64,000 bases of DNA from Candidatus Omnitrophota bacterium (GTDB lineage: Bacteria; CAIJMQ01): assembly GCA_018812925.1 (NCBI GenBank), contig JAHJCU010000004.1, positions 101,621 to 165,620 on the forward strand. Reading direction: 5' to 3'. Under the pieces are notes generated by a model that searched no databases, was not told where the DNA came from, and worked only from the letters and a program-made list of their open reading frames with translations. A program made the translations under genes and the position numbers. Below are positions 703 through 25,042 of this stretch, in pieces; position 1 is the first letter of the stretch, and every line of letters begins with the position of its first letter.

Positions 703-2325
703 ATGCATTTAACTATATTTTTTATTGCCGCAGTAATTTTTTTGTTTGTAGGGTATATTTTTTACGGAAAGATGCTCGGGAAAATATACGAATTAAACGA
801 CAAAAAACCTACTCCTGCGCATACACTTAAAGACGGAATTGACCATGTCCCCACCGGTAAACCTATCCTTTTAGGGCATCATTTCTCTTCAATAGCGGGA
901 GCCGGGCCTATTATCGGCCCAATTTCAGGAGCTATGTTCGGATGGCTTCCCGTACTTTTATGGATAATTATAGGGTCTGTATTCTTGGGCGGCGTTCACG
1001 ATTTTTCTGCACTGGTATCTTCCATAAGAAATAAAGCTCTTTCCTTAGGAGAACTAATAAAAAATCTCATGGGCAAGAGAGGTCGTCTCTTATTCCTGAT
1101 TTTCTCCTGGCTGACTCTTGTTTTAGTTATAGCGGTTTTTTTTGAACTTACAAAAACTGCATTTATTCAATCCCCGGGCATAGCAACCTCATCAATTCTT
1201 TATATTGTATTGGCAGTAGTAATGGGAACAATGCTTTACATAAAGAAAACCCCGTTACTTCACACAACTATAATATCTTTAATCTTCTTGTTTGCCTTTA
1301 TTCATATCGGCCAAAAACTCCCACTTAATCAGGGCGAGAATTTCTGGATATTCGCTCTTGCTTTTTATTGTTTTTGTGCATCTATTCTGCCCGTTTGGCT
1401 TCTACTGCAGCCAAGAGATTATTTGAGCAGTTTTCTGCTTTATGCCTCGGCAATAGGCGGTTTTGTAGGAATAGTAATCGGCGGATACAAAATTACGTAT
1501 CCAATGTATACTGCATTTAATATCAACGGTTCTCACCTATATCCAATACTGTTCGTAACAGTTGCCTGCGGCGCAATTTCAGGTTTTCATTCGCTCGTAT
1601 CTTCGGGAACAACCTCTAAACAATTAAATAAAGAATCCGACGCAAAATTTATAGGTTATGGAAGCATGATTATTGAAGGATTAGTTGCCGTTATTGCTTT
1701 ATCTACCGTCATGATAATTTCAAAAGAAAGATACGCGGAACTTATCAGAAATCCTTTAGCCGTCTATGCCAACGGGATGGGAATATTTTTGAGCAAATTA
1801 GGATTTTCCGTAAAATTTGGGGAAAGTTTCGCAATTTTGGCTTTATCAACATTTATTCTAACAACTCTGGATACCGCCACTAGAATAGGAAGATATACAT
1901 TAAGCGAACTATTGGGAGAATATGCGGCAATATTTAAAAACAAGTATATCTCAACACTGGTTACGATAGGAGCCGCTCTATTTTTGGTTCTTGCAAAATC
2001 CTATGATTTGCAGGGCAATTTGATACCCGCTTGGAAAATCATTTGGCCCGTATTCGGCGCAAGCAACCAACTGCTTGCTTCGCTGGTCCTATTAAGTGCA
2101 ACTTTATATCTCATATCAAAGAAAAAAAGATGCCTTATTACATTGCTCCCTTTGCTCTTTATGTTACCGATGACTATTTTTGCCTTGATATCTATTGCCG
2201 TAAAAAATCTCTGCACACAAGCCCCCAACTATACAATAGGTATTTCTTCAATAGTTCTTATATTATTAGCTTTACTGCTGGTGTTAGAATCAGTTGCTTC
2301 AATATATAAAAAAGAGACCGAATAA
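703..2325 (+). CDS. cstA: Carbon starvation protein A family transporter
   Basis: 540-aa polytopic membrane ORF; CstA-type motif HHFSSIAGAGPIIGPISGA near the N-terminus. Confidence 0.8.
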   Translation: MHLTIFFIAAVIFLFVGYIFYGKMLGKIYELNDKKPTPAHTLKDGIDHVPTGKPILLGHHFSSIAGAGPIIGPISGAMFGWLPVLLWIIIGSVFLGGVHDFSALVSSIRNKALSLGELIKNLMGKRGRLLFLIFSWLTLVLVIAVFFELTKTAFIQSPGIATSSILYIVLAVVMGTMLYIKKTPLLHTTIISLIFLFAFIHIGQKLPLNQGENFWIFALAFYCFCASILPVWLLLQPRDYLSSFLLYASAIGGFVGIVIGGYKITYPMYTAFNINGSHLYPILFVTVACGAISGFHSLVSSGTTSKQLNKESDAKFIGYGSMIIEGLVAVIALSTVMIISKERYAELIRNPLAVYANGMGIFLSKLGFSVKFGESFAILALSTFILTTLDTATRIGRYTLSELLGEYAAIFKNKYISTLVTIGAALFLVLAKSYDLQGNLIPAWKIIWPVFGASNQLLASLVLLSATLYLISKKKRCLITLLPLLFMLPMTIFALISIAVKNLCTQAPNYTIGISSIVLILLALLLVLESVASIYKKETE

Positions 2326-2406
2326 AAGTCGGCCATTATTCGTTTTCAAAATTTCCAAAAGATACTTAATAATATGATTATAAAGTTGAGCCAAATTGGT
2401 TATTTG

Positions 2407-2440: not shown

Positions 2441-4372
2441 TCACAAATACGGATCTACATTTTGCGAATCGATTATCATTACTGGAGATTTTGTTCTTGG
2501 AGAAATCACTTCTTCCTTGATGGTGTTTCTCAAGACTGTTCGCATCAGAACTTTCCCCATACCAACGGGGTTGGTGTTTAAAGTAGCGAATAACTCTCTC
2601 TTTTTAATACTCTGAATAGCGTTTTTATTCCCGTCAAAACCCATTGTGAATATTTTATTTATTTTACCCGCTTCTTTGACTGCCTCTACTGCCCCCAAAG
2701 CCATTTCATCGCTCAAACAGAAAAATGCGTCTAAATGAGGGTATTTTTTAATTAACTCTTTAGCAACTAATTTGGCTTTATCTCTGTTCCAATCCGCAGG
2801 TCTGGACTCCACTATTTTAATTGCAGGATATTTTTTCACTACTTCGATAAATCCTTTTTTCCTGTCAATGGAATCGCTTCCTTCGGAAATACCTTCAATA
2901 ATGGCTACATTTCCTTCTGTTCTTAACAACCTTACCATAAAATGCCCCACCATTCTGCCCGCTTCTTTTTGTTCATAATAAATATAAGAAGCTATTTTGC
3001 CCGGAGGGTTCATCTTCAATGTGTTGAGATTGAAAACAAAAATCGGAATTTTTGCTTTGTTTGCTTTTACGATTATGTCTCCCACATTCTGTTTCGAGCA
3101 CAAACCGATTGCATCCACTTTATCTTCAATTGCTTTTCGCAAAGAACCTAATTGTTTTTCATAACGCCCTCCATAATTCGGGTCATCACTACCTGATAGA
3201 ACAATAACATCTACACTTCCAACTTCTTCTGCGACTTCCTTTACTCCCCGCAAAACATTGGAATAAAACGGACTAAGTGACGAGGAGCAAAATACAAACC
3301 TATTCTTGTCTTTTCTGGTAATTAAAGAAGGACATACTCTATTCCTGCCTTCTTCTTTCGCAAGATATAATGCCTCGTCTGCTTTCTTTACAAGGTCTCC
3401 GTAGAATATTGCATTTTCAGGATAAGATGACAGCCCAATACTGATAGTTAATTGGACTTTTTCTGTGCCTCCGTTTGCGTTAAATACATAATTTTCCACG
3501 CTTTTCCTTATTCTTTCCGCCGCGCATAATGCCTGATGTCTATTAGTATAAGGACAAATTACCGCTATTTCTTCTCCGCCATATCTGAAAGGTATATCAT
3601 ATGCTCTTATGGTATCCCTTATTATTTCCGAAATTACATACAAAACTTTATCTCCAACAAGATGCCCGTATTTGTCATTGAATATTTTAAAATGGTCTAT
3701 ATCAATCATTAATACTGACAGAGGATATTTAAAACGATTTGCTTTTGACACCTCTTTTATTAATGTTTCATAGAAAGACCTATGATTATACAGTGTAGTT
3801 AAACTATCAATATTTGCAGTATTGAGTAATATTGCCACTCTTTCTTTCAAATATTCGTTCTGAATCGTCATCATTTCGGTATAAAATAACTTGTTCAGTT
3901 TGTCTAAACCCAAATTAGAATATTCTTGGTTATATAACAAGATAATACCGATATTTTGTTCCCCTGCTTTCATGGGAATAACAACTGACGAAACCAATTT
4001 GTTATCTTTAACGAATGACAAATTTTTTATTTCCTTGTTTTTATCAATATCAATGGCGCAGATTTTATTTTTCTTTAACAATATTTCCATAACCTGCTTT
4101 TCTTTATTTACCTGCCCTTTTTTATGTTTACCAGCGCCTGTTATAAATTCTATCCTGTTGGTTGCTTCATCTCTTGCCCAGACGGAAAGCATATGTGCTT
4201 TTGAAGATTTTAAAATTTTTGCCAATGCAGATTCTATGGCTTTTTTCTTAAAAAAGTCCCTCAAAACAAGGTTGGTTAATGTAACATTACTTACCTCTAC
4301 AGGTTTCGTCGCACGCTGCAGACTCTTTGTCTTGCTACTTTTGAAAGCAGATTTTGGTTTCTTGGTTTTCAT
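2441..4372 (-). CDS. Diguanylate cyclase: GAF-like N-terminus, GGDEF domain, C-terminal periplasmic-binding-protein-like domain
   Basis: RAYD I-site followed by the GGEEI active-site motif; last ~270 aa resemble a type I sugar-binding PBP fold; ATG at 4372 preferred over the track TTG at 4384. Confidence 0.75.
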   Translation of the reverse strand: MKTKKPKSAFKSSKTKSLQRATKPVEVSNVTLTNLVLRDFFKKKAIESALAKILKSSKAHMLSVWARDEATNRIEFITGAGKHKKGQVNKEKQVMEILLKKNKICAIDIDKNKEIKNLSFVKDNKLVSSVVIPMKAGEQNIGIILLYNQEYSNLGLDKLNKLFYTEMMTIQNEYLKERVAILLNTANIDSLTTLYNHRSFYETLIKEVSKANRFKYPLSVLMIDIDHFKIFNDKYGHLVGDKVLYVISEIIRDTIRAYDIPFRYGGEEIAVICPYTNRHQALCAAERIRKSVENYVFNANGGTEKVQLTISIGLSSYPENAIFYGDLVKKADEALYLAKEEGRNRVCPSLITRKDKNRFVFCSSSLSPFYSNVLRGVKEVAEEVGSVDVIVLSGSDDPNYGGRYEKQLGSLRKAIEDKVDAIGLCSKQNVGDIIVKANKAKIPIFVFNLNTLKMNPPGKIASYIYYEQKEAGRMVGHFMVRLLRTEGNVAIIEGISEGSDSIDRKKGFIEVVKKYPAIKIVESRPADWNRDKAKLVAKELIKKYPHLDAFFCLSDEMALGAVEAVKEAGKINKIFTMGFDGNKNAIQSIKKRELFATLNTNPVGMGKVLMRTVLRNTIKEEVISPRTKSPVMIIDSQNVDPYL

Positions 4373-4459
4373 TGTTAATTCCAACTAGCATACTATCAGA
4401 ATTCTGAAATAAAAAAAAGTAAAACTCTTTTTTAAGAAGAGAACTACCAAAAATTTAAT

Positions 4460-7285: not shown

Positions 7286-8153
7286 TATTTTGAATCTTAA
7301 TTTTTGTTATAAAATCTGCCAATAACCCGACTTCTTCCAAAGAAAGCGTTTCCCCCCGTCTTGTTAAATCAATTGGAGATTTCTTGTAAAATTCCAATGG
7401 AAGATTTAAGAATTTGAGAGTGTTCTTAAGATTTTTCCTTCTCATTCTAAACATTGCGTCTGCTATTTTGAAGAAAAGTTCCTCGTCACAAACTTTTACT
7501 CTTGGGCTTTTTAGAGGTTTAAATAAAACAATAGCCGAATCCACATTAGGTGACGGGAAAAACACCCTTCTTGAAACTTTATGAATTATTTCAATGCCCA
7601 TATGAAATTGTGCCTTTATACTTAAAAAAGAATAATTTTCACTGCCGGGACACGCAACGAGACGTTGTGCAAACTCTTTCTGAAGCATAAGCACGATGCA
7701 TGAGAATTTCTTCTTAAAAGAAATCAATTTAAATAGAATCGGAGAAGCTATGCTGTAAGGCGGGTTTGAAACTACTTTCCATTCAGGAGATTCTCTTAGA
7801 ATAATTTCCAGGTCAATTTTTAGGATATCATCATTGATAACTTTCACATTGGGATAGGAAACAGCGGCAAGCTCTTTTAAAGAAGAAGCAGCCCCCCTAT
7901 CCTTTTCTATAGCAAACACTTCAGCGCCTTCGCAAGCCAAAGCAAAAGTAAGCGTCCCTATTCCTGAACCTATCTCAAGAACTTTTTCTCCCTCTTTTAT
8001 TTTTGCGGTTTCAACTATCTTCTTAAGGATATTTTTATCAACCAAAAAATGTTGACCCAGAAATTTTCTGGGACTAAGCCCTCTTTCTATCAAAAGATTT
8101 TTGACTTGAGTAGGCGTAGCCAAATCCAAATCAGGTTTATGTAAATTAGCCAT
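7266..8153 (-). CDS. rsmA: 16S rRNA (adenine1518/1519-N6)-dimethyltransferase
   Basis: FLGQHFLVD and VLEIGSGIGTLT SAM-binding motifs, NPPY-like catalytic motif (SNPPYSI). Confidence 0.85.
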   Translation of the reverse strand: MANLHKPDLDLATPTQVKNLLIERGLSPRKFLGQHFLVDKNILKKIVETAKIKEGEKVLEIGSGIGTLTFALACEGAEVFAIEKDRGAASSLKELAAVSYPNVKVINDDILKIDLEIILRESPEWKVVSNPPYSIASPILFKLISFKKKFSCIVLMLQKEFAQRLVACPGSENYSFLSIKAQFHMGIEIIHKVSRRVFFPSPNVDSAIVLFKPLKSPRVKVCDEELFFKIADAMFRMRRKNLKNTLKFLNLPLEFYKKSPIDLTRRGETLSLEEVGLLADFITKIKIQNRHKGTK

Positions 8154-8247
8154 CAGAGTATAAAATGATGCGTTAAAAAACTAAAAACATAATATCACAA
8201 TATTGACCTGTTTTCTTTTAATCCACGGGAAAATATATTAGCAGTAC

Positions 8248-8997
8248 TTAGTATATATCGCAATAAAGCTCATTTTTAAAAGCACTATCTCTTACAGAAA
8301 TAATTTTATTAAATATATCTCTGATTCCGGTTCCAAAATTATCTTTATAAATATGCTCTTGTAGAATTTTTATAAATTTTGCTTCAAAATCAGAAGACTT
8401 ATGTGTATCTGCCGTATCTGCTATTATGGTTCCTATTTTAATTGTTACGTCACCCTGTATACACAAATAGGTGATATCTGATAGTTTTTTAATTATTTCT
8501 GGTTTGGGATAGGGTTTAATATCTTCTATTTGTTTTCTAATAGAACCAATGCGATCTGATATTTCTTTGTAGAAAGATTTTAGGAATTTAAAATCTTGTT
8601 TATCGAAACTTATTGACTTTTTATGTATTACTTTTAAAATAGCTTCAACATTTGCAGTTTTCTTGAATTCTTCATAGGCATTTGCAAAATCATGATTCTT
8701 ACCACCATTTTGTTCCGATATCAAATTAAACTTTCGCAAAATTCCATACATAAGAAGGTTTAACGAAAGTGTAATAAAATAAGTTTTTTCCCTGTTAATA
8801 TCTTTAATCTTTTTATCTTTTCTTTTCCTAATTAAAGAATCAATTCCCCAAATAGTTAAAGATACTACTACCATCCCGCTGATTAAGTTTATAAAGAAGC
8901 TGTTAATATCGGGGTGAATATCCAATTTGCAAAGTTTAAGAGTGATATATATAACTACCAGAATTAGCAAAATTATAAACACAATAATTTTTTCCAT
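8248..8997 (-). CDS. Hypothetical membrane-anchored protein (two N-terminal TM helices, Lys/Ile-rich)
   Basis: ORF with its own flanking intergenic gaps; no recognisable motif. Confidence 0.4.
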   Translation of the reverse strand: MEKIIVFIILLILVVIYITLKLCKLDIHPDINSFFINLISGMVVVSLTIWGIDSLIRKRKDKKIKDINREKTYFITLSLNLLMYGILRKFNLISEQNGGKNHDFANAYEEFKKTANVEAILKVIHKKSISFDKQDFKFLKSFYKEISDRIGSIRKQIEDIKPYPKPEIIKKLSDITYLCIQGDVTIKIGTIIADTADTHKSSDFEAKFIKILQEHIYKDNFGTGIRDIFNKIISVRDSAFKNELYCDIY

Positions 8998-9044
8998 TTT
9001 AAAGTAGTTTTTTAAACTTAAAACTTATAACTTACCACTTAATA

Positions 9045-14010: not shown

Positions 14011-15141
14011 ATGATAAAAATATGTCGCATAGCTTATCTCATCACAGAACTTAATATTGGCGGCGCTGAGAATTCTCTATATCAATTAGTAACCCATCTT
14101 AATTCTAAAAGATTCTCTCCTGTAGTTTACTCATTAAGCGGTGAAGGTAAAATTGCAGATAAATTAAGAGATAAAGGTATAGAGGTAATATGTCTTGGCG
14201 CAAAAAATAAATTTGATATCACGGTTTTATTTAAACTGATAAAACTTCTTCACCGCAAAAAGCCATATATCCTCCATACCTATCTTTTCCATGCTAACTT
14301 CATGGGAAGAATCGCAGGCTGTATTGCGGGTATCCCTATTATAATTTCTTCAGTAAGAGTTGCAGAAAAAGAGAAAAATCATCATTTATATTTAGATACG
14401 TTTACACAATGGATGATAAACAAAGAAATATGTGTGTCAAAGGAAGTAGAAAAATTTATGCAGAGGAAAGCAAAGATTTTCCCTTCAAAACTTACAACAA
14501 TTTATAACGGCATAAATACTTCCGATTTTTATTTACTTAATGATAAAGAAAAAAATAAAAAGAAAGAAGAGCTATCCATCTCTGGGTTCAATCTAATTAT
14601 TGGAACGGTTGCCAGACTTACAAACCAGAAAGGAATAAAATATCTTCTTAAAGCATTTCAGCTCGTTTTAAAAGATTTTCCAAAAAGTTGTCTTTTGATA
14701 GTAGGACATGGTCCTCAAGAAAAAAAATTAAAAGAATTGGCTTTGGAATTGGATATCGCTTCTTCAGTTAAATTTCTGGGTTTTAGAGAAGATGCGATGA
14801 AAATCATTAATATAATGGACGTGTTTGTTCTGCCTTCGCTTTGGGAAGGTATGCCTAATGTGGTTCTTGAAGCGTACGCTTTGGGTAAACCTGTAATAGC
14901 AACGCAAGTGGATGGGGCCAAAGAAATAATTCAGGATAACAAAACGGGTTTTTTAGTTCCTCCCCGTGATTGGAAAAATTTAGCTAACGCTATAAAATTA
15001 CTTCTTAAAAACCAAAAAACAAGAGAAAAATTTGGGAAAAAAGGCAAAGAATTTGTAGCCCAAAATTTTTCTTTGGATAGAATGGTAAAAGATACCGAAA
15101 AACTTTATAAACAGTTAATTTCTCAAATATTACTAAAATAA
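14011..15141 (+). CDS. Glycosyltransferase family 4
   Basis: GT-B C-terminal signature EGMPNVVLEAYALGKPVIAT. Confidence 0.8.
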   Translation: MIKICRIAYLITELNIGGAENSLYQLVTHLNSKRFSPVVYSLSGEGKIADKLRDKGIEVICLGAKNKFDITVLFKLIKLLHRKKPYILHTYLFHANFMGRIAGCIAGIPIIISSVRVAEKEKNHHLYLDTFTQWMINKEICVSKEVEKFMQRKAKIFPSKLTTIYNGINTSDFYLLNDKEKNKKKEELSISGFNLIIGTVARLTNQKGIKYLLKAFQLVLKDFPKSCLLIVGHGPQEKKLKELALELDIASSVKFLGFREDAMKIINIMDVFVLPSLWEGMPNVVLEAYALGKPVIATQVDGAKEIIQDNKTGFLVPPRDWKNLANAIKLLLKNQKTREKFGKKGKEFVAQNFSLDRMVKDTEKLYKQLISQILLK

Positions 15142-15160
15142 TTTTTATAATAAGAATGTC

Positions 15161-16123
15161 ATGAATATCAAATTCTATATTGCTTTGGCAAAAGGAATAA
15201 TCGCGGGTTATATTCCTGCCGGATTATATAGACTTGTCTCTAAAGGCACTGGGGGAACAATTTCTGCGCGATATAGTTATTCTATATGGTTGAGACATCT
15301 TGTAATGGCTTACAAAAATAATCTCCCAACTCAACCCGATACTATCGCAGAACTTGGGCCTGGAGATTCTTTAGGCATTGGGTTGGCGGCATTAATATCA
15401 GGAGTGAATAAATATTATGCTTTTGATGTTATTAAATATGCCGATAACCAAAGAAATATTAAAATTTTTGATGACTTGATAGTTCTATTTAGGAAACGCG
15501 AAAAAATCCCGGATGAAACCGAATTTCCAGAAATCAAGCCATACCTTGAATCATATGAGTTTCCAACCCATATCTTAAGTGATGACCATCTTAATTTAAT
15601 GTTGAAAAACGATAGAATCAAATCTATAAAAAACGCGCTTTTAAATACAGGGAAAACTCATAGCGATAAAATACAAATATCCTATTTTGTTCCTTGGCAT
15701 AATTCAAATATAATAAAAGAAGCTTCAGTTGACATGATATACTCCCAAGCAGTATTGGAACACGTTGAATATCTTGAATATATATATGAGACATTATATC
15801 GTTGGCTAAAGCCGGGAGGTTTTATGTCCCATCAAATTGATTTCAAATCTCATGGATTAGCAAGTGAATGGAATGGGCACTGGACATATTCAGATTTTGC
15901 GTGGAAAATAATGAGAGGGAAAAGGTCTTATCTGTTAAATAGAGAGCCTCATTCAAAGCATATTGAACTTATACATAAAGCAGGTTTTGAGATTATTTGT
16001 GATATACAATACAAAAATAAATCGAGAATTCAAAAAAAATACCTTAAATCAAAATTCAAGTACCTCTCTGATGATGATTTAACTACAACAGGAGCCTTTA
16101 TTCAAGCCGTAAAGAAAAGATAA
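15161..16123 (+). CDS. Putative class I SAM-dependent methyltransferase
   Basis: Motif I-like ELGPGDSLG, acidic beta-2 end, WLKPGGF post-II motif. Confidence 0.5.
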   Translation: MNIKFYIALAKGIIAGYIPAGLYRLVSKGTGGTISARYSYSIWLRHLVMAYKNNLPTQPDTIAELGPGDSLGIGLAALISGVNKYYAFDVIKYADNQRNIKIFDDLIVLFRKREKIPDETEFPEIKPYLESYEFPTHILSDDHLNLMLKNDRIKSIKNALLNTGKTHSDKIQISYFVPWHNSNIIKEASVDMIYSQAVLEHVEYLEYIYETLYRWLKPGGFMSHQIDFKSHGLASEWNGHWTYSDFAWKIMRGKRSYLLNREPHSKHIELIHKAGFEIICDIQYKNKSRIQKKYLKSKFKYLSDDDLTTTGAFIQAVKKR

Positions 16124-16254
16124 TAGAGAATGGGAAATACCTACTTTAGAGATAGTCAGTAGGAAAAATAATAAACTAGATAATAAACCTTTACTTTAAT
16201 AGGTTGAATGTTTAATCATGAGAGATTCATAATAAATAAAGAAAAATAAAATTT

Positions 16255-17718
16255 ATGGATATTCTACTAGTAAATCCAGATAGCCAAAGAGTTAACAATT
16301 TCCCTTTAGGGATATTAGCTATCGGGAGTTACCTAAAGAAATTTACCAATTATTCTGTAGAGCTTTTGGACCAAAGTGTATTTATAGATTCCCAAGCATT
16401 TACCGAATCTCTAATTGAGCAATGTAAAAAGACATCCCTAGTAGGAATTAGTTTCATGACAACCCAAGCCTATTTGGCAAGGGATATAATACAAACTATC
16501 AAAAAATACAATCCTCAATGCAAGATTATAACAGGAGGCCCTCACTCTATTTTATACCCGGAACAAACTATCCGCTATCAGGATATTGATTTTGTAGCTT
16601 ATGGAGAAGGCGAAAAGACTGTAGCAAAGTTACTTGAGGTTTTAAGTGAAGAAAACAGGTATACAGAGGTCCTGGGTCTGGTATATAAAAATAATGGGAA
16701 AATTGTTAAGAATCCTCCAGCTTCTTTACTTGAATCAGAAGAAATGCCTAATATTTGCTATGAACTTCTTGATAAAAAAGTAATAGATTCAATGAGAGAT
16801 TATATCGAGGTTATCACTAGTAGAGGGTGTTCATATCATTGTACTTTTTGTATCAATAGCATCTGCAGTTTGAAATGGCGGGGTAAAAATGTAGACCAGA
16901 TTATTGACGAATTAGATAATATTGTTACAAAGTATAATCCTCGGACAATTTCTTTCCAAGATCAGGATTTTTTCCAATCTAAAGAGCGAACCTATAGATT
17001 AATTGAGAAGTTAATTGATAGAAAATTTTATTTCCAATGGCAAGCTGCTGTCCGAGCAAATTATTTTTCTCCCTCGTATATTAATAATGAAATGATCCCA
17101 AAGCTAAAAAAAAGTGGCTGTATCTGTTTGCAAGTTGGAGCTGAATCTGGATCTCAGAGGATTCTAAATAAGTTGAAAAAAGGAATTAAGATAGAGCAAA
17201 TTTTTACCATGGCTAAAGACTGCAAGGAAGCCAATATTGAGTGTGTTTTCTCTTTTATTATCGGATTTCCCCATGAAAAAAAATATGATTATTATTTAAC
17301 ACTAAAGTGCATTGATCAGCTTTTTAAAATGCTCCCTAATTGTACAATTATAGGACCACAGCCCTTGCGAATTTATCCGGGTGGAGAACTATATGAAGAA
17401 ATCAAGCAACTTGGGTACCAAGAACCTAAAAGTTTCGAAGAGTGGACTCAACGTAATCTGAAACAAAAATTTTCAGACTATCCTTTCCAAGTCGAGAACC
17501 ATCACTGGACAGAAGATTCAGACTTTATAAATTATCTACAAGTTTTCGTCCATTTAGTAAGTAGTAAATTTCTTCCCAGACAAAAATTAAAAAGATTGAT
17601 GATACTTCCCTTTCGTATTATAGCTAAGCTACGTTGGAGACTAAGTTTTTTTAATTATCCCTATGATGCAAAGTTTTATAATTTTATGCTTGGAGTTGTA
17701 CGAAAGATTAAAAAATAG
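16255..17718 (+). CDS. B12-binding domain radical SAM protein
   Basis: CSYHCTFC (CxxxCxxC) cluster motif preceded by an N-terminal B12-binding-like domain. Confidence 0.75.
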   Translation: MDILLVNPDSQRVNNFPLGILAIGSYLKKFTNYSVELLDQSVFIDSQAFTESLIEQCKKTSLVGISFMTTQAYLARDIIQTIKKYNPQCKIITGGPHSILYPEQTIRYQDIDFVAYGEGEKTVAKLLEVLSEENRYTEVLGLVYKNNGKIVKNPPASLLESEEMPNICYELLDKKVIDSMRDYIEVITSRGCSYHCTFCINSICSLKWRGKNVDQIIDELDNIVTKYNPRTISFQDQDFFQSKERTYRLIEKLIDRKFYFQWQAAVRANYFSPSYINNEMIPKLKKSGCICLQVGAESGSQRILNKLKKGIKIEQIFTMAKDCKEANIECVFSFIIGFPHEKKYDYYLTLKCIDQLFKMLPNCTIIGPQPLRIYPGGELYEEIKQLGYQEPKSFEEWTQRNLKQKFSDYPFQVENHHWTEDSDFINYLQVFVHLVSSKFLPRQKLKRLMILPFRIIAKLRWRLSFFNYPYDAKFYNFMLGVVRKIKK

Positions 17719-17738
17719 TTATTAAATTACTTACTTAG

Positions 17739-19295
17739 ATGAATGATACTTTAGAAAAAACAGAAAAATGGGGAATTCCCACTTTGGATAATGCTTTAAA
17801 ACATATAACAAAGAGTGGGTTTTTTATCTTTTTTGGTTCTGCTGTAGGAGGAGTAATAGGTTTTTTAACCAGAATATTAGTCATAAAAAATATTAGCGAG
17901 TCAGAATTTGGCGTTCTTTCTATTGCATTGGTGTTTTTGAGTTTAATTGTATGGTTATTTGCTGCAGGGTTAGTCGTGGGACTATCCAGATTGATTTCAT
18001 ATTATAAATCCAGGAATAATCTCGTTAAGGTAGAAACTATTGTCAGGACAGCAGTCTGGAGTTCTTTATGTATGGGGATAGGCATTTCTGTTATATTGCT
18101 TTTTATTGGGAGTAAAATCTTTCATCTTTTTTATTCCGCGAACCTTTTCCCCGTATTTGCCATCTTGGTTGGAGGTGTTCCTTTTCTTATATTTACCGCT
18201 CTTTGTATACAAATATTTTTGGGATTTGGCGTATCTGCGCCCAAAATTTATTTAGACCCTGCCAGTTCTTCTGCTATAAGATTGGCAACGGTTCTAATAG
18301 CAATATTTTTTAGTAACATTTTCGCAAAAGCAATATTTTTAAATATTATTTGGGCTTATTTTTTCTCTTTTCTGATAACAGGTTTAATCGCTTTATTTTA
18401 TACTGCAAAAAACCTTCCGCAATTCATAAAATTTAAGCTTATAGGAAATATGGATAAAGAAATTATTCTTTTTTCATTGCCGCTCCTTGGAGCGGTGATT
18501 TTTTCTTTCACGCTTGGCTGGACAGATACATTATTTATCGGATATTTCTATAGCCCAACTGAAGTAGGTATTTATAACGTTGCGTTTACACTGGCTAACA
18601 TAATCCCTTTTTTGTTGCTTGTTCCGATTGGTTATATCTATACCCCCATAGCCACGCAATACTACGCGGGGAATATGCTTACTAAAGTGAAAGATTTATA
18701 TTCTTCTCTCTCCCGATGGATTTTTGTTTTTACTATCATCCCCACTTTTGTTTTCCTATTATTCCCCAAGCAGGTATTAATTCTTTTCTTTGGTGAACGA
18801 TATATAAATGCTTCTTTTGCTCTGACTTTACTTACCGGCGGATTTTTAGTCCAAATAATTTTTGGACCCATTGTAGCCACTTTGATAGCTTTAGGGAAAA
18901 ATAAAACAATATTATCAGCTAATTTTATAGGCTTAGCAGCAAATATCTCTTTAAATTTTTTTCTTGTTCCTAAATTAGGAATTATAGGAGCAAGTTATGC
19001 GTGTCTGTTTTCTATCATACTTGTAAATGTTGCTTACTTTTTGCCTCTTTACTACAAAGACAAAATTTCACCTTTTAACAAAGATTATCTTAAAGTTATC
19101 CTCCTAGGAACAATTTCAATTTTGTTAGTCTATATTCCCGGTAAATTTTTGTTAAATATAAGCACTTGGATGTTGCCTGCGGTAATTCTTATATTTCTAT
19201 TGATTTTGGGGATATTATTTTTCTTAACTGATAGCATAACAGAAAATGATAAAATGCTTTGGGAAGCAATTGTGCAAAGATTTAAAGGAGATTGA
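17739..19295 (+). CDS. Polysaccharide flippase (Wzx/MOP superfamily)
   Basis: 518-aa polytopic membrane protein inside a glycosyltransferase cluster. Confidence 0.6.
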   Translation: MNDTLEKTEKWGIPTLDNALKHITKSGFFIFFGSAVGGVIGFLTRILVIKNISESEFGVLSIALVFLSLIVWLFAAGLVVGLSRLISYYKSRNNLVKVETIVRTAVWSSLCMGIGISVILLFIGSKIFHLFYSANLFPVFAILVGGVPFLIFTALCIQIFLGFGVSAPKIYLDPASSSAIRLATVLIAIFFSNIFAKAIFLNIIWAYFFSFLITGLIALFYTAKNLPQFIKFKLIGNMDKEIILFSLPLLGAVIFSFTLGWTDTLFIGYFYSPTEVGIYNVAFTLANIIPFLLLVPIGYIYTPIATQYYAGNMLTKVKDLYSSLSRWIFVFTIIPTFVFLLFPKQVLILFFGERYINASFALTLLTGGFLVQIIFGPIVATLIALGKNKTILSANFIGLAANISLNFFLVPKLGIIGASYACLFSIILVNVAYFLPLYYKDKISPFNKDYLKVILLGTISILLVYIPGKFLLNISTWMLPAVILIFLLILGILFFLTDSITENDKMLWEAIVQRFKGD

Positions 19296-19298
19296 AAA

Positions 19299-20051
19299 AT
19301 GTTAAAACTAACTCTAACGCCATCACCATTTTTTAGTAGAAATAAACAATTACCACAATATTACAAAGGTTTGCTTGCGAAATCAGATGTCAATCTCCAT
19401 GCTCAATTATTGGTGCATATAGAAAAGTTGATAGACGCTCATAAAGGAAAAATTTTTAGAGTTTTAGATTGGGGATGCGGAGAGGGTAGTTTTTCTCAAA
19501 GATTACACGATTTAGGTTGTGAAGTCATAGCAGTCGATATGAATAAGAAAGAATTTAAAGCAAGTGGTCCTAAATTCTATAAATTAAATTTTAATGCAAA
19601 GGATGAGGTAATCCAATTTATTAAAGAACATTCAGGGAAATTTGATCTCATTGTTTCCATAGAAGTAATTGAGCATGTTGAAAACCCCTGGGATTTTTTA
19701 CGTACTTTAAAGCAATTATGTTCATACTCGACTTACTTATTAATTACGACGCCCAATATTAGTTGTTGGTGGAGTAGGTTTTGGTTTTTGTTAACAGGGG
19801 AAATTTGGGGGTTTTGTGAGTTTTCCTGGTTAGAAATAGGCCATATTAACGCAATCCCTCAGGTAGAAATGGTTAATATTTTCCGTGAAATAGGATTCTC
19901 GCACATTGAAGTATTCTCCGGAGGCACTCTCCCAATTATTTGGGGATACAACTGGAAAAGATTATTAGTTAGTATTTTTTTCTTACCGTTACAATTCTTA
20001 ATTAAGAAAGAACAACGCGGTCTAGCATCCTGTTATCTTGTAAAAAGATGA
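19299..20051 (+). CDS. Class I SAM-dependent methyltransferase
   Basis: VLDWGCGEGSF motif I; DLIVSIEVIEHV. Confidence 0.7.
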   Translation: MLKLTLTPSPFFSRNKQLPQYYKGLLAKSDVNLHAQLLVHIEKLIDAHKGKIFRVLDWGCGEGSFSQRLHDLGCEVIAVDMNKKEFKASGPKFYKLNFNAKDEVIQFIKEHSGKFDLIVSIEVIEHVENPWDFLRTLKQLCSYSTYLLITTPNISCWWSRFWFLLTGEIWGFCEFSWLEIGHINAIPQVEMVNIFREIGFSHIEVFSGGTLPIIWGYNWKRLLVSIFFLPLQFLIKKEQRGLASCYLVKR

Positions 20052-20105
20052 GGAGAATACGTCTTGAATAAGTATTACCATGTAAAATGAGACGTTTGTA
20101 TTTTT

Positions 20106-21203
20106 ATGCAAAAAATAATGTTTATTATTTCTTCTTTGGGTATAGGAGGAGTAGAAAAAATAGTTATTAATATACTTAAAAATCTAGACGAAAATAAATT
20201 TTCTCCCACTCTTGTTCTACTTGCTTCAGATACAACTTTGCAGGGGGAACTTCCTGACAATATTTCTATTATAAAATTAGGTATAGAAGGCCATTTTGCT
20301 ACTTTACGTCTAATCTTGCCATTGGCAAGAATAATTCAGAGAGAAAAACCTCAAACAATAGTCTCTTTTATGTGGGGAATTAACTTAATTGTTCTGTTAA
20401 CTAAATTTTTTATATGTTCCTCAGTTAAAATAATTCTTTCAGAGCGAATTCATTTGGGGAAGGATATCCCAAATTATAAATTCTCTTTTCTACGTAGGTT
20501 CCTGGTTAAAAAATTTTATCCTCAATCTGGAGCTATTATTGCTATATCTTCAGGTATTAAACAGAATCTTATAGACGAATTTGGAATTCCGGAAGAAAAA
20601 ATAAGGGTTATCCATAATGGAATTGACTTGGGAAATATAGAAACTTTGGCAAAAGCTCTTTTTCAGCCCACTTTTAAAGAATATATTATTGCTGTAGGGA
20701 GATTGGAAAAACAAAAAAATTATTCTCTTCTATTAAAAGTTTTTGCGAAAGTTAATAAAAAACATGATATAGGATTAGTAATCCTCGGGGAAGGTAAAGA
20801 GAGAAAAAACCTTAAGATCCTTATCCGAGAGTTAGGATTAGATGGAAAAGTTTTGATGCCCGGAGTAGTAGATAATCCTTATTCTTGGCTGGCTCATGGA
20901 AAAGTTTTTGTGCTTTGTTCAAAATATGAAGGATTCGGTAATGTAATTATAGAGGCAATGGCTTGTAAAATACCCGTAGTAGCTACAAATTGTCCTTCTG
21001 GACCAGGAGAGATAATAAATGATGGAGTAACCGGTCTTTTAGTGGAAAATAACAATGTTGAAAAATTAGAAGTGGCGATATTAAAATTTTTAAATAATCC
21101 TTCTTTGGTAAAAGAAATAAGTGAAAAGGCTTTCGCGGAAGTCAAACAATGGGATATAAAACAAGTCACTAAAGATTATGAAACAGTGATTCAATCTATT
21201 TAG
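20106..21203 (+). CDS. Glycosyltransferase family 4
   Basis: EGFGNVIIEAMACKIPVVAT signature. Confidence 0.8.
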   Translation: MQKIMFIISSLGIGGVEKIVINILKNLDENKFSPTLVLLASDTTLQGELPDNISIIKLGIEGHFATLRLILPLARIIQREKPQTIVSFMWGINLIVLLTKFFICSSVKIILSERIHLGKDIPNYKFSFLRRFLVKKFYPQSGAIIAISSGIKQNLIDEFGIPEEKIRVIHNGIDLGNIETLAKALFQPTFKEYIIAVGRLEKQKNYSLLLKVFAKVNKKHDIGLVILGEGKERKNLKILIRELGLDGKVLMPGVVDNPYSWLAHGKVFVLCSKYEGFGNVIIEAMACKIPVVATNCPSGPGEIINDGVTGLLVENNNVEKLEVAILKFLNNPSLVKEISEKAFAEVKQWDIKQVTKDYETVIQSI

Positions 21204-21217
21204 GAGGTACATAGAAT

Positions 21218-22018
21218 ATGAAAAAAGAAGAAATTACCTTTTCTTTTGGTAAGAATTGGGAGGAATTTATCAAAAAAAGTTTCAGCCAAGAAAGAATAGA
21301 AATATCCAAAAACTATATTTTAGATTTTCTGGAACTACCTGATTTATCAGATAAATACTTTTTAGACGTTGGTTGCGGCAGTGGACTTTCTTCTTTAGCG
21401 GCATTAGAAGCAGGAGCAAAAAAGATTGTCAGTTTTGATGTTGACTCTTATTCTGTGAAGACTACTGAAAAATTACGTCAAATGAGAGGAAATCCTACAA
21501 ACTGGATTGTTTTAGGAGGGTCTATTCTGAATAAAACTTTCCTTTCGAATATAGAACCCGCAGATATTGTCTACTCATGGGGAGTCCTTCATCATACTGG
21601 GAAAATTTGGGAGGCATTGGAGAATACTTCTAAATTAATGAAAAAAGATGGGTTCTTCTATATTGCTCTCTATACAACAACAAACAAATCAGCCTATTGG
21701 CTTGAAACCAAGAAGAGATACAATAGAGCATCAACATTAGAGAAAAAGTGGATGCAACTCGCATATATTATTCGTTATACAATTATCCCTCAATTATTTA
21801 GACTAAAGAATCCTTTGCCTTATCTTCGTAATTACAAAAAAAGTCGAGGAATGTCCTATTTGACGGATGTCAAAGATTGGCTTGGAGGATATCCTTATGA
21901 GGATGCGAAAATTGAGGAAGTATTGAGATTTTGCCGCAAGAAACTCTCTTTTGAACTTATAAACATCAAGACAGGGGAAGCATGTACTGAATATCTATTC
22001 CAAAAGAGACAAATATAA
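21218..22018 (+). CDS. Class I SAM-dependent methyltransferase
   Basis: FLDVGCGSGLSS motif I. Confidence 0.7.
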   Translation: MKKEEITFSFGKNWEEFIKKSFSQERIEISKNYILDFLELPDLSDKYFLDVGCGSGLSSLAALEAGAKKIVSFDVDSYSVKTTEKLRQMRGNPTNWIVLGGSILNKTFLSNIEPADIVYSWGVLHHTGKIWEALENTSKLMKKDGFFYIALYTTTNKSAYWLETKKRYNRASTLEKKWMQLAYIIRYTIIPQLFRLKNPLPYLRNYKKSRGMSYLTDVKDWLGGYPYEDAKIEEVLRFCRKKLSFELINIKTGEACTEYLFQKRQI

Positions 22019-22020
22019 AA

Positions 22021-23907
22021 ATGTGCGGAATATGCGGATTTTTGAATAAAAAAATTCTTTCCTCTGAAGTTTTGGAGAAAATGAATGACGAGTTGGCTCA
22101 TCGGGGACCTGATGATAGAGGTATATATTTAAATACAATTCCTAATTACCAATTACCAATTACCAATGATACTTTTCAAGTGGGGTTGGGGAATAGGAGG
22201 CTTTCTATTATTGACCTTACGGAACACGGTCATCAGCCAATGTGCAATGAAAAGAGAGATGTCTGGATAGTTTTTAACGGGGAAATCTATAATTTTCAGG
22301 AATTAAAAAAAGAATTAGAGGGCAAAGGACATAAGTTCAAAGGAAGGTCTGATACCGAAGTTATTTTGCATTCTTATGAACAATGGGGTGTAGATTGTTT
22401 GCAAAGATTCAACGGCATGTTTGCTTTTGCTATTTGGGACCAGAAGAAAAAAACACTTTTTATAGCAAGAGACAGAGTTGGTATTAAGCCGCTGTATTAT
22501 TATTTTAAAGACGGGAATTTCGCTTTTTCTTCCGAATTAAAGTCCCTGCTGAAGTATCCCTTATTTGAAAAAGAATTAAACAAAAAGAGTTTATATTATT
22601 ATCTTCTTTTTCAGTATGTTCCAACCCCTTATTCTATATTCGAAAATACTTGGAAACTACTGCCCGGTCATTATTTAATATTAAGAGAAGGTAGGGGTGT
22701 TAAGATTAAGAAATATTGGGATATCTTGGGTAAAAGAGAAGTGATAAGAAAAAAAAATGTTCAAGAATATATGGAAGAATTTGAAAGTTTGCTTAAAAGC
22801 TCTATTAAATATCGACTTATAAGCGATGTCCCTGTAGGCGCATTTTTGTCCGGCGGCACAGATTCTAGCTTAGTAGTAGCTTCAATGGCTCAATTAACAG
22901 ATAAAGTAGAAACATTCACTATCGGTTTCGAAGAAAAAAAATACAATGAAGCTCCATATGCAAAAGAAATAGCTAATTATTTAGGTACAAAACATCACGA
23001 ACTTTATTTTAAAGAGAAAGATATATTCTCGCTTATTAGAGATTTGCCCCAATATTACGATGAACCTTTCGGCGATTCTTCTTCCCTGCCAACGTACTTG
23101 GTTTCCCGTCTTGCAAAAGAAAAAGGTGTTAAGGTGGTTCTTTCCGGAGACGGAGGGGACGAATTATTTTGCGGATATAATCGTTATATATGGATGAATA
23201 GAATGCAAAATATTCTACTATTACCTGCAATTATCAGAGAAAAAGTTGCGCCTTTATTAGGAAACATCCCCTATCTAAAACTGCGGCGAATATCTCAAAT
23301 TTTGCAATACAAAGACCTTCTCCAAATGTATTTGAGCGTAGTAGATATGTGGTCCGAAAAAGAACTTGAAAAACTTTTAGGAGAAAATTATTCCTATGAA
23401 GAATTGCCTTTTTCCAAAGTTTATAAAAAAGTTAATGCATCGCATTTACTTGAAAAATTACAACTTGTAGATTTTCATACATATTTGCCCGAAGATATAC
23501 TTACCAAAGTAGATAGAGCTTCTATGGCGGTATCACTTGAGACAAGAGTGCCATTATTAGACCACAGAATAGCAGAGTTTGCGTATAGCTTGCCTTTGGA
23601 TTTACGCTATAGACAAGGGATAAGAAAGTATCTATTGAAAAAAGTGCTTTACAAAGAACTTCCAGCCAAATTTTTTAGACGACCCAAACAAGGATTTGGG
23701 ATTCCGCTTGATCAATGGTTAAGAGGAGGTGTTAAGCCTTATATTGACGAATATTTGAATACTGGGAGAATAAAAAAAGAAGAGTTGTTTAACCCTGAAT
23801 TTGTGAAAGAACTTATTAAAAAACACTTAAGCGGTAAATATAATTATCAATATCCTATATGGACTTTGCTCCAATTCCAATTGTGGAAAGAAAAATACCT
23901 TACCTGA
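22021..23907 (+). CDS. asnB: Asparagine synthase (glutamine-hydrolysing) family amidotransferase
   Basis: N-terminal MCGI nucleophile; SGGTDSS PP-loop; 628 aa. Confidence 0.85.
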   Translation: MCGICGFLNKKILSSEVLEKMNDELAHRGPDDRGIYLNTIPNYQLPITNDTFQVGLGNRRLSIIDLTEHGHQPMCNEKRDVWIVFNGEIYNFQELKKELEGKGHKFKGRSDTEVILHSYEQWGVDCLQRFNGMFAFAIWDQKKKTLFIARDRVGIKPLYYYFKDGNFAFSSELKSLLKYPLFEKELNKKSLYYYLLFQYVPTPYSIFENTWKLLPGHYLILREGRGVKIKKYWDILGKREVIRKKNVQEYMEEFESLLKSSIKYRLISDVPVGAFLSGGTDSSLVVASMAQLTDKVETFTIGFEEKKYNEAPYAKEIANYLGTKHHELYFKEKDIFSLIRDLPQYYDEPFGDSSSLPTYLVSRLAKEKGVKVVLSGDGGDELFCGYNRYIWMNRMQNILLLPAIIREKVAPLLGNIPYLKLRRISQILQYKDLLQMYLSVVDMWSEKELEKLLGENYSYEELPFSKVYKKVNASHLLEKLQLVDFHTYLPEDILTKVDRASMAVSLETRVPLLDHRIAEFAYSLPLDLRYRQGIRKYLLKKVLYKELPAKFFRRPKQGFGIPLDQWLRGGVKPYIDEYLNTGRIKKEELFNPEFVKELIKKHLSGKYNYQYPIWTLLQFQLWKEKYLT

Positions 23908-23917
23908 TAAGTTAACT

Positions 23918-25042
23918 ATGGATAAAATCAATATTTTATATCTGATTGCCACTTTAGATATCGGTGGAGCAGAGAGACAATTGGTAGAACTTGTAAAGCG
24001 AATTGATAAAAAGAAATTTAATCCGATAGTTTGTTGTTTGACAAGAGGCGGTCCTTTAGAGCAAGAATTAAAAGAAACAAGAGTTGAATATTTTATTTTA
24101 GGTAAAAAATTCAAATTTGATTTCTCGGTAATTTTTAAACTTATTTCTATCTTAAAACAAAAAAATATTCATATTCTGCATACATGGATGTTCACCTCAA
24201 ATTCTTTTGGAAGGATGGCGGGAATTGTTTCTCAAACCCCGATAATGATTGCATCGGAAAGGTGTGTTGACCTTTGGAAAAACGGATTACATCTTCTCAT
24301 AGATAAAACACTGGCAAATTTTACAGACAAGATAATATGTGTCTCTGAAGCGGTAAAAAACTTTTATCATAATGATGCCTATATACCGTTAGACAAAATG
24401 ATAACGATTTATAACGGGATTAAAATAGATGATGAAGTAAATATAGATAAAGAAAAGAAAAAAAAGGAATTCGGTGCTATAGGAAAAGACAATATTGTAA
24501 CTACTGTCGGTCGGCTTGCTCCTCAAAAAGGCATCGAATATTTACTATATGCAGTTCCTAAAATTTTAGAATCTATGTCCAAAATAAAATTTTTAATCGT
24601 TGGGGAAGGCACTGAAAAGAATAAACTAAAGAAATTAGCAGATAAACTGAATATTTCCCGGAATATAATTTTTACAGGATTGAGAAATGATGTTAACGAA
24701 ATTTTAACAATAACGGATATATTCGTTCTACCATCTATTTTTGAAGGACTGCCAAATGTTATTATGGAGGTAATGCTTTCAAAAAAGCCGGTTATTGCAA
24801 CTCGTATACCCGGCACTGATGAATTGGTAGTAGATGGAGAAACAGGGATATTAGTTCCCCCAAAAGACGCCGAATCTTTAGCATCTGCAATTATTAATGT
24901 TTTGAAAAATCCGGCAAAAGCAAAGGAAATGGGAATTAACGGTAGAAAAAGAGTAGAAAAATATTTTTCCATAGATAAAACGGTTAGAAAAACAGAAGAA
25001 TTGTATGAGACGCTAATCAGAACGAAAATTAAACAGCTATAA
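23918..25042 (+). CDS. Glycosyltransferase family 4
   Basis: EGLPNVIMEVMLSKKPVIAT signature. Confidence 0.8.
   Translation: MDKINILYLIATLDIGGAERQLVELVKRIDKKKFNPIVCCLTRGGPLEQELKETRVEYFILGKKFKFDFSVIFKLISILKQKNIHILHTWMFTSNSFGRMAGIVSQTPIMIASERCVDLWKNGLHLLIDKTLANFTDKIICVSEAVKNFYHNDAYIPLDKMITIYNGIKIDDEVNIDKEKKKKEFGAIGKDNIVTTVGRLAPQKGIEYLLYAVPKILESMSKIKFLIVGEGTEKNKLKKLADKLNISRNIIFTGLRNDVNEILTITDIFVLPSIFEGLPNVIMEVMLSKKPVIATRIPGTDELVVDGETGILVPPKDAESLASAIINVLKNPAKAKEMGINGRKRVEKYFSIDKTVRKTEELYETLIRTKIKQL

Follow-up and report, generated by a model that had tools for sequence, protein, structure and literature searches.

A Candidatus Omnitrophota GGDEF protein fused to a sugar-binding-protein-like domain might link c-di-GMP synthesis to an intracellular metabolite

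The window analyzed here, meaning the whole of a 64,000-nucleotide stretch of DNA from a Candidatus Omnitrophota bacterium (contig JAHJCU010000004.1), carries near its left end a gene for a predicted diguanylate cyclase. In this protein, the GGDEF domain expected to make c-di-GMP (cyclic diguanosine monophosphate) is followed by a domain related to periplasmic binding proteins (PBPs), which are better known as components of sugar transporters. A preliminary description, prepared without database searches, had called this architecture unusual and had proposed that the C-terminal domain acts as a ligand sensor. The evidence presented below makes it moderately probable that the protein is a cytoplasmic diguanylate cyclase with two inputs, in which a PBP flytrap would bind an intracellular sugar-like metabolite and thereby modulate c-di-GMP synthesis.

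The open reading frame (ORF) is unbroken on the reverse strand, with its stop codon at 2441-2443, and would encode 647 amino acids if translation began at the TTG codon at 4384. The coding sequence more probably begins at the ATG at 4372 (M5) and encodes 643 amino acids, because the copy held by NCBI has this length and the N-termini of homologs align at the same point. This copy (MBU1631440.1) is 100% identical, carries the label "diguanylate cyclase," and comes from Candidatus Omnitrophica/Omnitrophota metagenome-assembled genomes with contigs of up to 593 kb. The protein opens with a lysine-rich tail and a GAF fold; a coiled-coil helix then leads into the GGDEF domain, which is followed by an RbsB-like type I PBP domain. 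These parts are listed below, with residues numbered from the TTG codon and with model confidence given as the predicted local distance difference test (pLDDT) score.

2441 to 4384, reverse strand: whole ORF, 647 amino acids from TTG; likely coding sequence 2441 to 4372
4271 to 4384, reverse strand: N-terminal lysine/serine-rich tail, residues 1-38, predicted to be disordered (pLDDT <50)
3905 to 4264, reverse strand: divergent GAF-fold domain, residues ~41-160, assigned from an AlphaFold2 model, Foldseek, profile matches to the PDB, and Pfam matches of homologs
3815 to 3904, reverse strand: long linker helix, residues ~161-190 (DSSP helix 160-190 in the model)
3338 to 3817, reverse strand: GGDEF domain, residues 190-349 (Pfam and TIGR00254)
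3596 to 3607, reverse strand: I-site RAYD, R260-D263, the RxxD motif for allosteric product inhibition, read from the translation
3566 to 3580, reverse strand: active-site motif GGEEI, G269-I273, read from the translation
3299 to 3337, reverse strand: linker between the GGDEF and PBP domains, residues 350-362, with invariant S353-L354 in the alignment columns and low pLDDT at 355-358
2465 to 3298, reverse strand: type I PBP domain (RbsB-like Venus flytrap), residues 363-640, assigned from Pfam, Foldseek, and alignments

The GGDEF domain matches the Pfam model PF00990 over residues 190-349 (E 1.4e-46; 158.7 bits versus a cut-off of 23.8) and the NCBIfam model TIGR00254 (E 2e-54; 183.7 bits versus a cut-off of 37.4). 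Its central motif stretch, RAYDIPFRYGGEEI, translates exactly from 3566-3607 on the reverse strand and reads RAYD-IPFRY-GGEEI, which places the RxxD motif five residues upstream of GGEEI, as in the product-inhibited cyclases of the PleD/WspR type. The signatures DIDHFKxFND, RYGGEEI, and KEEGRNR, which cover the active site and residues for metal and GTP binding, are all present in the cyclase. In an alignment of 26 family members with an intact active site (A1), these signatures and the catalytic-type residues are invariant, as are R260 and D263 of the I-site. The translation and this invariance confirm the earlier report of an intact I-site and GGEEI active site. The fifth active-site residue is isoleucine instead of phenylalanine, and the family pattern at this motif is GG[DE]E[IFML]. 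A precedent for an aliphatic fifth residue is provided by Bacillus subtilis DgcP, which is listed as a diguanylate cyclase and carries GGEEL (PMC5422440). Judged from these motifs, the c-di-GMP-synthesizing enzyme is apparently intact and can be predicted to be catalytically active.

The region that precedes the GGDEF domain was assigned by less direct means. None of the Pfam GAF families PF01590, PF13185, and PF13492 matches residues 1-194 at E<=10, and the sole Pfam match in this region is to SpoVT_C (E 0.0035). When the GAF region was modeled separately with AlphaFold2, its residues had a pLDDT of 84, and the top Foldseek matches of that model were mostly GAF domains (3hcy, 3eea, 3p01, DosS, and Lcd1; E 4.5e-5, template modeling (TM) score ~0.6). 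A family profile compared with the PDB gave weak matches for the N-terminal region, mainly to GAF domains, and homologs at ~35%-40% identity have Pfam GAF matches. Modeling and homology thus place the N-terminal domain in the GAF fold, as a member too divergent for Pfam. The domain order of GAF, GGDEF, and PBP given in the preliminary description is correct, although its GAF element escapes Pfam and is supported instead by the fold search, weak profiles, and homologs. A helix of 30 residues (160-190) connects the GAF domain to the "DxLT" start of the GGDEF domain, and in the model it looks like a coiled-coil signaling helix.

The first 40 residues of the protein include nine lysines or arginines versus two aspartates or glutamates. 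This lysine/serine-rich tail is variable in length and is confined to close relatives (at least 64% identity) of the Omnitrophota/Ratteibacteria type. Residues 1-38 may, for example, bind membrane or nucleic acid electrostatically.

The C-terminal domain has a type I PBP fold, as had been proposed, with two α/β lobes and a hinge. Residues 369-619 match Pfam Peripla_BP_4 (PF13407; E 4.7e-46, 157.9 bits versus a cut-off of 35.1), weaker matches were obtained for Peripla_BP_1 and Peripla_BP_3, and no unrelated fold was assigned. In Foldseek comparisons, ribose- and allose-binding proteins overlay on the domain, 2ioy being the best match (TM 0.83, E 5e-26). The PBP part comprises ~285 residues (about 361-640) rather than the ~270 estimated previously. 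A likeness to LacI-type proteins had also been suggested, but the domain is far nearer to the substrate-binding proteins (SBPs) of transporters (E 8e-34) than to LacI cores (E 1.7e-6). No Pfam match to the LacI helix-turn-helix (HTH) domain (PF00356) was obtained in the cyclase, and the PBP domain sits C-terminal to GGDEF.

Several observations bear on the ancestry of this domain. Scores against the NCBIfam models for RbsB (NF007936; 110.8 versus a cut-off of 337) and AlsB (NF007254; 142.9 versus a cut-off of 335) are both subthreshold. In a search with the PBP domain only, the score falls sharply from 241 to 153 bits past the fusion family, and the next matches are free SBPs of 300-350 amino acids; no fusion to any other output domain turned up in this search. 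The nearest free SBPs (P0272-P0298) share 32%-38% identity with the PBP domain and are lipoproteins with an LPPAMTSP[FY]Y motif. Their genes lie in CUT2 operons for an SBP, an ATPase, and a permease, together with genes for short-chain dehydrogenases/reductases (SDRs), a DeoC-type aldolase, a zinc-dependent alcohol dehydrogenase, PfkB kinases, and LacI/SorC regulators. Sequence comparison therefore derives the PBP domain from an uncharacterized subfamily of exported sugar/polyol ATP-binding cassette (ABC) transporter binding proteins and not from true ribose binders. At locus L006, the nearest free SBP is encoded in an operon that also specifies a small ASRT-fold protein (PF07100; 11645-12013) beside SDRs, a DeoC-like aldolase, and SorC- and LacI-type regulators. 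This operon is an uncharacterized sugar/polyol utilization locus.

Unlike the closest free SBPs, all of which have signal or lipoprotein peptides, the cyclase has neither a signal peptide nor a transmembrane helix, in agreement with the preliminary description. The maximum Kyte-Doolittle value over 19 residues is 1.15, whereas the same measure exceeds 2.4 for the signal peptides of free SBPs and for CstA. Because no hydrophobic segment is present, the whole protein, including its "periplasmic" binding domain, is cytoplasmic and soluble. The domain also differs from a transport SBP in being internal, after GGDEF, with no export signal of its own and no genes for a cognate permease and ATPase.

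Clues to the function of the domain can be sought in its binding cleft. Cleft residues were mapped by HMMER alignments to 2ioy and to Escherichia coli ribose-binding protein (RBP), whose ribose contacts we take to be N13, F15, F16, D89, R90, R141, F164, N190, D215, and Q235. The corresponding residues in the window protein are, in the same order, S371, F373, Y374, N452, L453, R508, W532, S558, D584, and T604. True RbsB proteins in the same alignment carry the canonical residues at all mapped positions (N/F/F/D/R/R/F/N/D/Q), which validates the mapping. Five of the 10 ribose contacts are replaced in the fusion (N13S, D89N, R90L/V, N190S, and Q235T). Because of these changes, and because the RbsB and AlsB scores lie far under their cut-offs, the pocket is not that of RbsB, and a sugar is left as a plausible class only.

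By its sequence, the cleft is not a ribose site, yet it is clearly maintained. The 10 ribose-contact positions, chosen a priori, have a mean conservation of 0.84 versus 0.60 for the domain, and only nine of 20,000 random sets of positions reach 0.84. Conservation of the cleft above the background of the domain, and its retention in relatives whose GGDEF domain has decayed (see below), lend support to a ligand-sensing role for the PBP domain.

A strongly conserved cleft fits poorly with a different role, in which the PBP domain would bind no ligand and serve as a constitutive scaffold or dimerization module that holds two GGDEF domains together, as the cores of LacI-type proteins form dimers. 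GGDEF enzymes do need dimerization, family members that lack the GAF domain have just a short N-terminal helix and the PBP domain available for this purpose, and certain conserved PBP residues lie outside the cleft. However, conservation within the domain peaks at the cleft, which a pure scaffold does not predict, and the kinship noted above is closer to monomeric transport SBPs than to LacI-family cores. This role is considered quite improbable.

Much of the pocket is shared with the free SBPs, which have S13, [FY]15, Y16, N89, T90, R141, W164, [SC]190, and D215 (RBP numbering) in common with the fusion. The two groups differ at residues 603-605, which are N-T-N in the fusion versus S-I-G or D-C-G in the free SBPs. 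When a nearest free SBP was used to search the PDB for a matching pocket of known ligand, only canonical ribose/allose binders were returned. The presence of dehydrogenases, an aldolase, PfkB kinases, and LacI/SorC regulators in the operons of the free SBPs suggests that the putative ligand belongs to the sugars or polyols.

The fusion is not restricted to the window. A word-indexed search of 5.8 billion clusters revealed 41 proteins with both GGDEF and Peripla_BP domains, after which all later matches had GGDEF only. An exhaustive profile search of 1.84 billion representatives at 50% identity recovered ~16 collinear full-length or partial family representatives (P0121-P0137 without the multi-GGDEF protein P0130) plus fragments, and the PBP-only search added a few more members. 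In total, ~60 sequences were found, which form ~16-25 clusters at 50% identity and are annotated only as "diguanylate cyclase"; the anatomy of the family described here is based on 61 sequences. Their organism labels are Omnitrophota and Ratteibacteria. Because the census yields few members, then a sharp drop to free SBPs, and no other fusion, the GGDEF-PBP proteins appear from their sequences to be a small and coherent family that has no family name, and the fusion probably had a single origin. Searches of the literature returned no paper describing a GGDEF protein that ends in a Peripla_BP domain. The architecture is thus as unusual as first proposed, and it does not correspond to a common annotated family.

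Other searches were less productive. A scan of genome contigs was swamped by generic GGDEF patterns and revealed the PBP fusion in none of 80 loci. Ten proteins considered as alternative GGDEF/PBP arrangements (P0143, P0146, P0153, P0169, P0177, P0182, P0193, P0202, P0211, and P0215) proved to be tandem double Peripla_BP_4 proteins with no GGDEF domain; such proteins of ~575-650 amino acids gave strong two-stretch matches in the census. Similarly, P0271 (272 amino acids, on a 31-kb contig, 66% identity) was considered as a stand-alone PBP and rejected as a frameshifted or truncated fragment whose reading frame is lost after "...LQSIK," either as a pseudogene or through a sequencing error.

The PBP domain and the short linker, with its invariant S353-L354, are present in every member of the family, and the alignment of the members supports one conserved collinear family rather than an assembly artifact. 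This finding is important because domain accretion is common in c-di-GMP proteins and a relative such as P0271 is broken by a frameshift, so that an ordinary GAF-GGDEF cyclase carrying the PBP as a neutral passenger, or a fusion created by faulty annotation or assembly, might otherwise be suspected. Such explanations are largely refuted by the recurrence of the same collinear order and conserved linker in ~60 independent sequences from many samples. Furthermore, the PBP domain is under strong purifying selection down to 34% identity, and the ORF in the window is uninterrupted. A passenger or an artifact is therefore essentially excluded.

Variation within the family is instructive. The motifs DIDHFK, RxxD, and RYGG[DE]E[IFML] are intact in the window protein and in most of the 61 sequences. 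The N terminus is variable, with a GAF domain in some members, only a helix of ~45 residues in P0014, P0016, P0017, P0126, P0129, P0269, and P0270, and almost nothing ahead of GGDEF in P0133-P0135. Because members that lack the GAF domain (P0014, P0126, P0129, and others) keep an active-looking GGDEF and the PBP, no sensor-type domain other than the PBP need be present. Essentially all catalytic GGDEF residues have been lost from about seven representatives (P0125, P0131-P0135, and P0137), which nevertheless keep the cleft residues of the PBP domain. From their sequences, these relatives may be receptors for c-di-GMP or a metabolite instead of enzymes.

The seven decayed representatives also provide the chief argument for viewing the PBP domain as an output or partner module. 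In such a scheme, the I-site of the GGDEF domain would sense c-di-GMP and control the flytrap, for example in metabolite sequestration or partner docking, and the C-terminal module of the window protein would come under feedback from its own enzyme. The RxxD motif, by which c-di-GMP receptors of the GGDEF type are classically recognized, is retained in decayed P0133 (RFED), P0135 (RQED), and P0137 (RSSD), but it is lost in decayed P0125 (SAYD), P0131 (HPYD), P0132 (SPYD), and P0134 (RAYH). Additional support can be drawn from R488, R615, and R619, whose conservation across the fusion family is 90% or more, against G/N/D or K/E/D in the nearest free SBPs. These arginines are candidates for an interdomain or second nucleotide-binding surface, and they could form a secondary c-di-GMP site that cross-links GGDEF to PBP, like the PleD adaptor domain. 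However, it is conjecture that these arginines face the I-site, no partner gene is conserved at the family loci, and the active site is fully intact in the window protein as well as in most members of the family. An output module is accordingly judged unlikely.

A broader proposal would combine elements of both views. The GGDEF-PBP family might constitute an unrecognized cytoplasmic signaling class, with a metabolite in the cleft, c-di-GMP bridging the I-site to R488/R615/R619, and a split into active cyclases and dead c-di-GMP/metabolite receptors. This proposal is doubtful at present, but if true it would provide the first type I flytrap that acts as an intracellular GGDEF partner.

The preferred interpretation remains a cytoplasmic diguanylate cyclase with dual inputs. 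The first input would be conventional, with the N-terminal GAF domain and coiled-coil helix dimerizing the enzyme and setting the geometry of its two GGDEF domains, which must meet because two molecules of guanosine triphosphate are joined into c-di-GMP. The second and unusual input would come from an RbsB-like flytrap that was taken over from the exported binding protein of an ABC transporter, has shed the signal peptide, and is joined by a short conserved linker to the C terminus of GGDEF. A small polar metabolite, probably a monosaccharide, polyol, or similar compound and not ribose, would be held in the cleft between the lobes, and closure of the lobes would alter how freely the adjacent GGDEF domains form a productive dimer. 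As an outcome, c-di-GMP synthesis would be tied to an intracellular metabolite, and the intact RxxD I-site would add product feedback. The analyses above establish the domain order, the intact motifs, the cytoplasmic location, the rarity of the architecture, the SBP ancestry of the flytrap, and the strong conservation of its cleft. In this scheme, we infer that the enzyme is active, that a ligand is bound and to which class it belongs, and how and in which direction the cyclase is regulated.

Certain observations weigh against this interpretation. The key sugar-binding arginine of RBP, R90, is replaced by a variable V/L/T, and PDB searches revealed no solved structure that shares the pocket signature. 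Also, no conserved neighbor gene indicates a ligand, given that family loci at 36%-52% identity have unrelated neighbors. How the PBP domain would act on GGDEF is conjecture, because the full-length AlphaFold2 model, made with the 26-sequence family alignment as input, is confident inside domains (mean pLDDT 82) and not between domains (predicted TM score 0.48). Finally, relatives with a dead GGDEF and an intact PBP show a role for the cleft that is independent of c-di-GMP synthesis, and they leave room for a PBP domain that is not simply an input to catalysis.

The genomic setting of the cyclase gene was also considered. The genes ksgA, recJ, and a gene for a zinc-dependent dehydrogenase precede the cyclase gene on the same strand in this order, and the cyclase gene converges on cstA (703-2325, forward strand). 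The same synteny is present at the locus of a 77%-identical relative (L001). No ABC transporter genes lie beside the cyclase gene, nor beside its counterparts at four other family loci. The preliminary description had drawn attention to cstA as the gene for a starvation-linked transporter, but this link is unsupported because the convergent arrangement is common only to close syntenic relatives and the neighbors of distant members differ. The cstA and dehydrogenase adjacencies are best read from these comparisons as lineage synteny, not functional linkage. A zinc-dependent dehydrogenase gene lies directly upstream of both the cyclase gene and the gene for the free SBP at L006, and a shared substrate was considered; this idea was rejected because the enzymes are 29% identical and are generic members of the medium-chain dehydrogenase/reductase group. 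In the window, the start of the dehydrogenase gene (5464) and the stop of recJ (5461) overlap by four bases, a sign that translation of this odd gene pair may be coupled; in L001, the two genes are ~158 base pairs apart.

Two inverted repeats that can form hairpins (2316-2334 and 2407-2424) are present at the 115-base-pair convergent gap between cstA and the cyclase gene, and one of them is followed by a T-run on the reverse strand:

2316 to 2334, reverse strand: terminator-like hairpin with T-run at the cstA junction, ~107 nucleotides 3′ of the stop codon, a single consensus match where shuffled sequences average 1.2

This hairpin may serve as a bidirectional terminator. A scan for promoters and terminators revealed nothing above shuffled expectation.

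Farther to the right are housekeeping genes and then, from ~14 kb, a polysaccharide-biosynthesis cluster. This cluster (~14011-25042, forward strand) encodes a glycosyltransferase, methyltransferases, a B12-binding radical-SAM enzyme, and a Wzx-type flippase (Polysacc_synt/MatE). It lies ~10 kb from the cyclase gene and is a possible target of c-di-GMP. An ORF of 249 amino acids at 8248-8997 on the reverse strand has no Pfam match and a hydrophobic N terminus, and it lies in a stretch of low G+C content (0.27-0.29 at 8001-9000 versus ~0.37 around it). This ORF could be foreign or fast evolving.

Despite the many sensor domains associated with c-di-GMP enzymes, few direct metabolite inputs to these enzymes have been worked out. 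If the flytrap senses an intracellular sugar-like compound, then a single protein would link carbon status to the messenger that governs biofilm formation and motility, and a transporter binding protein would have been recruited to the cytoplasm as a sensor, in parallel with the origin of LacI-type repressors. The family is found in Omnitrophota and relatives, which are uncultured and little-known phyla, and it might offer a scaffold for engineered switches that convert a metabolite signal into c-di-GMP. The arrangement is real, rare, and unstudied, and it is a variation on the well-known theme of a sensor joined to a cyclase. Modular fusions of this kind are the rule in the field, and the gain in understanding is incremental rather than conceptual.

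The window protein can be compared with several known systems. The GAF-GGDEF cyclases Lcd1 of Leptospira, DgcP of B. subtilis, and Treponema-type DgcA (NF041606) likewise have an N-terminal GAF domain, a helical linker, and a GGDEF domain with RxxD, but a C-terminal PBP domain is absent from all of them. Against the NCBIfam DgcA model, which aligns with residues 87-351 of the cyclase, the score is 166 bits versus a cut-off of 370, and the protein is therefore not a DgcA equivalog. The CUT2 SBPs of the RbsB/AlsB type, which include 2ioy (Thermoanaerobacter RBP), share the fold at 24%-30% identity, and the hinge, the aromatic pair, R141, and D215 are retained. In contrast to these proteins, the window domain is fused to an enzyme, lacks a signal peptide, and has no permease or ATPase genes beside it. 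The free SBPs with the LPPAMTSP[FY]Y motif mostly share its pocket, but they are exported lipoproteins encoded in ABC operons and lack R488/R615/R619.

Cytoplasmic sensors with a PBP fold do exist, as in the LacI/GalR cores and AmiC, and the natriuretic-peptide receptor guanylyl cyclases of animals join a type I flytrap to a dimeric nucleotide cyclase output. The LacI/GalR cores also use a type I flytrap as a ligand sensor, but the window protein has no HTH and is only weakly similar to them. The receptor guanylyl cyclases differ from it in domain order and topology, which makes this resemblance one of analogy, not membership.

In a census-type review (PMC8846402), PBP-clan domains are described as common in GGDEF/EAL proteins and are treated as periplasmic, and Peripla_BP in c-di-GMP proteins is listed only among unstudied putative sensor domains. 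The hybrid two-component sensor BT1754 of Bacteroides (2x7x), an RBP-like fructose sensor, is a direct match to the PBP domain in both fold and sequence. In BT1754, NspS-MbaA, CdgH, and RmcA, a PBP-fold module likewise feeds a small-molecule signal to a signaling enzyme. The PBP in these systems is periplasmic and mostly type II (SBP_bac_3), and it either lies N-terminal to a membrane anchor or forms a protein of its own, whereas that of the window protein is type I, cytoplasmic, and C-terminal to GGDEF.

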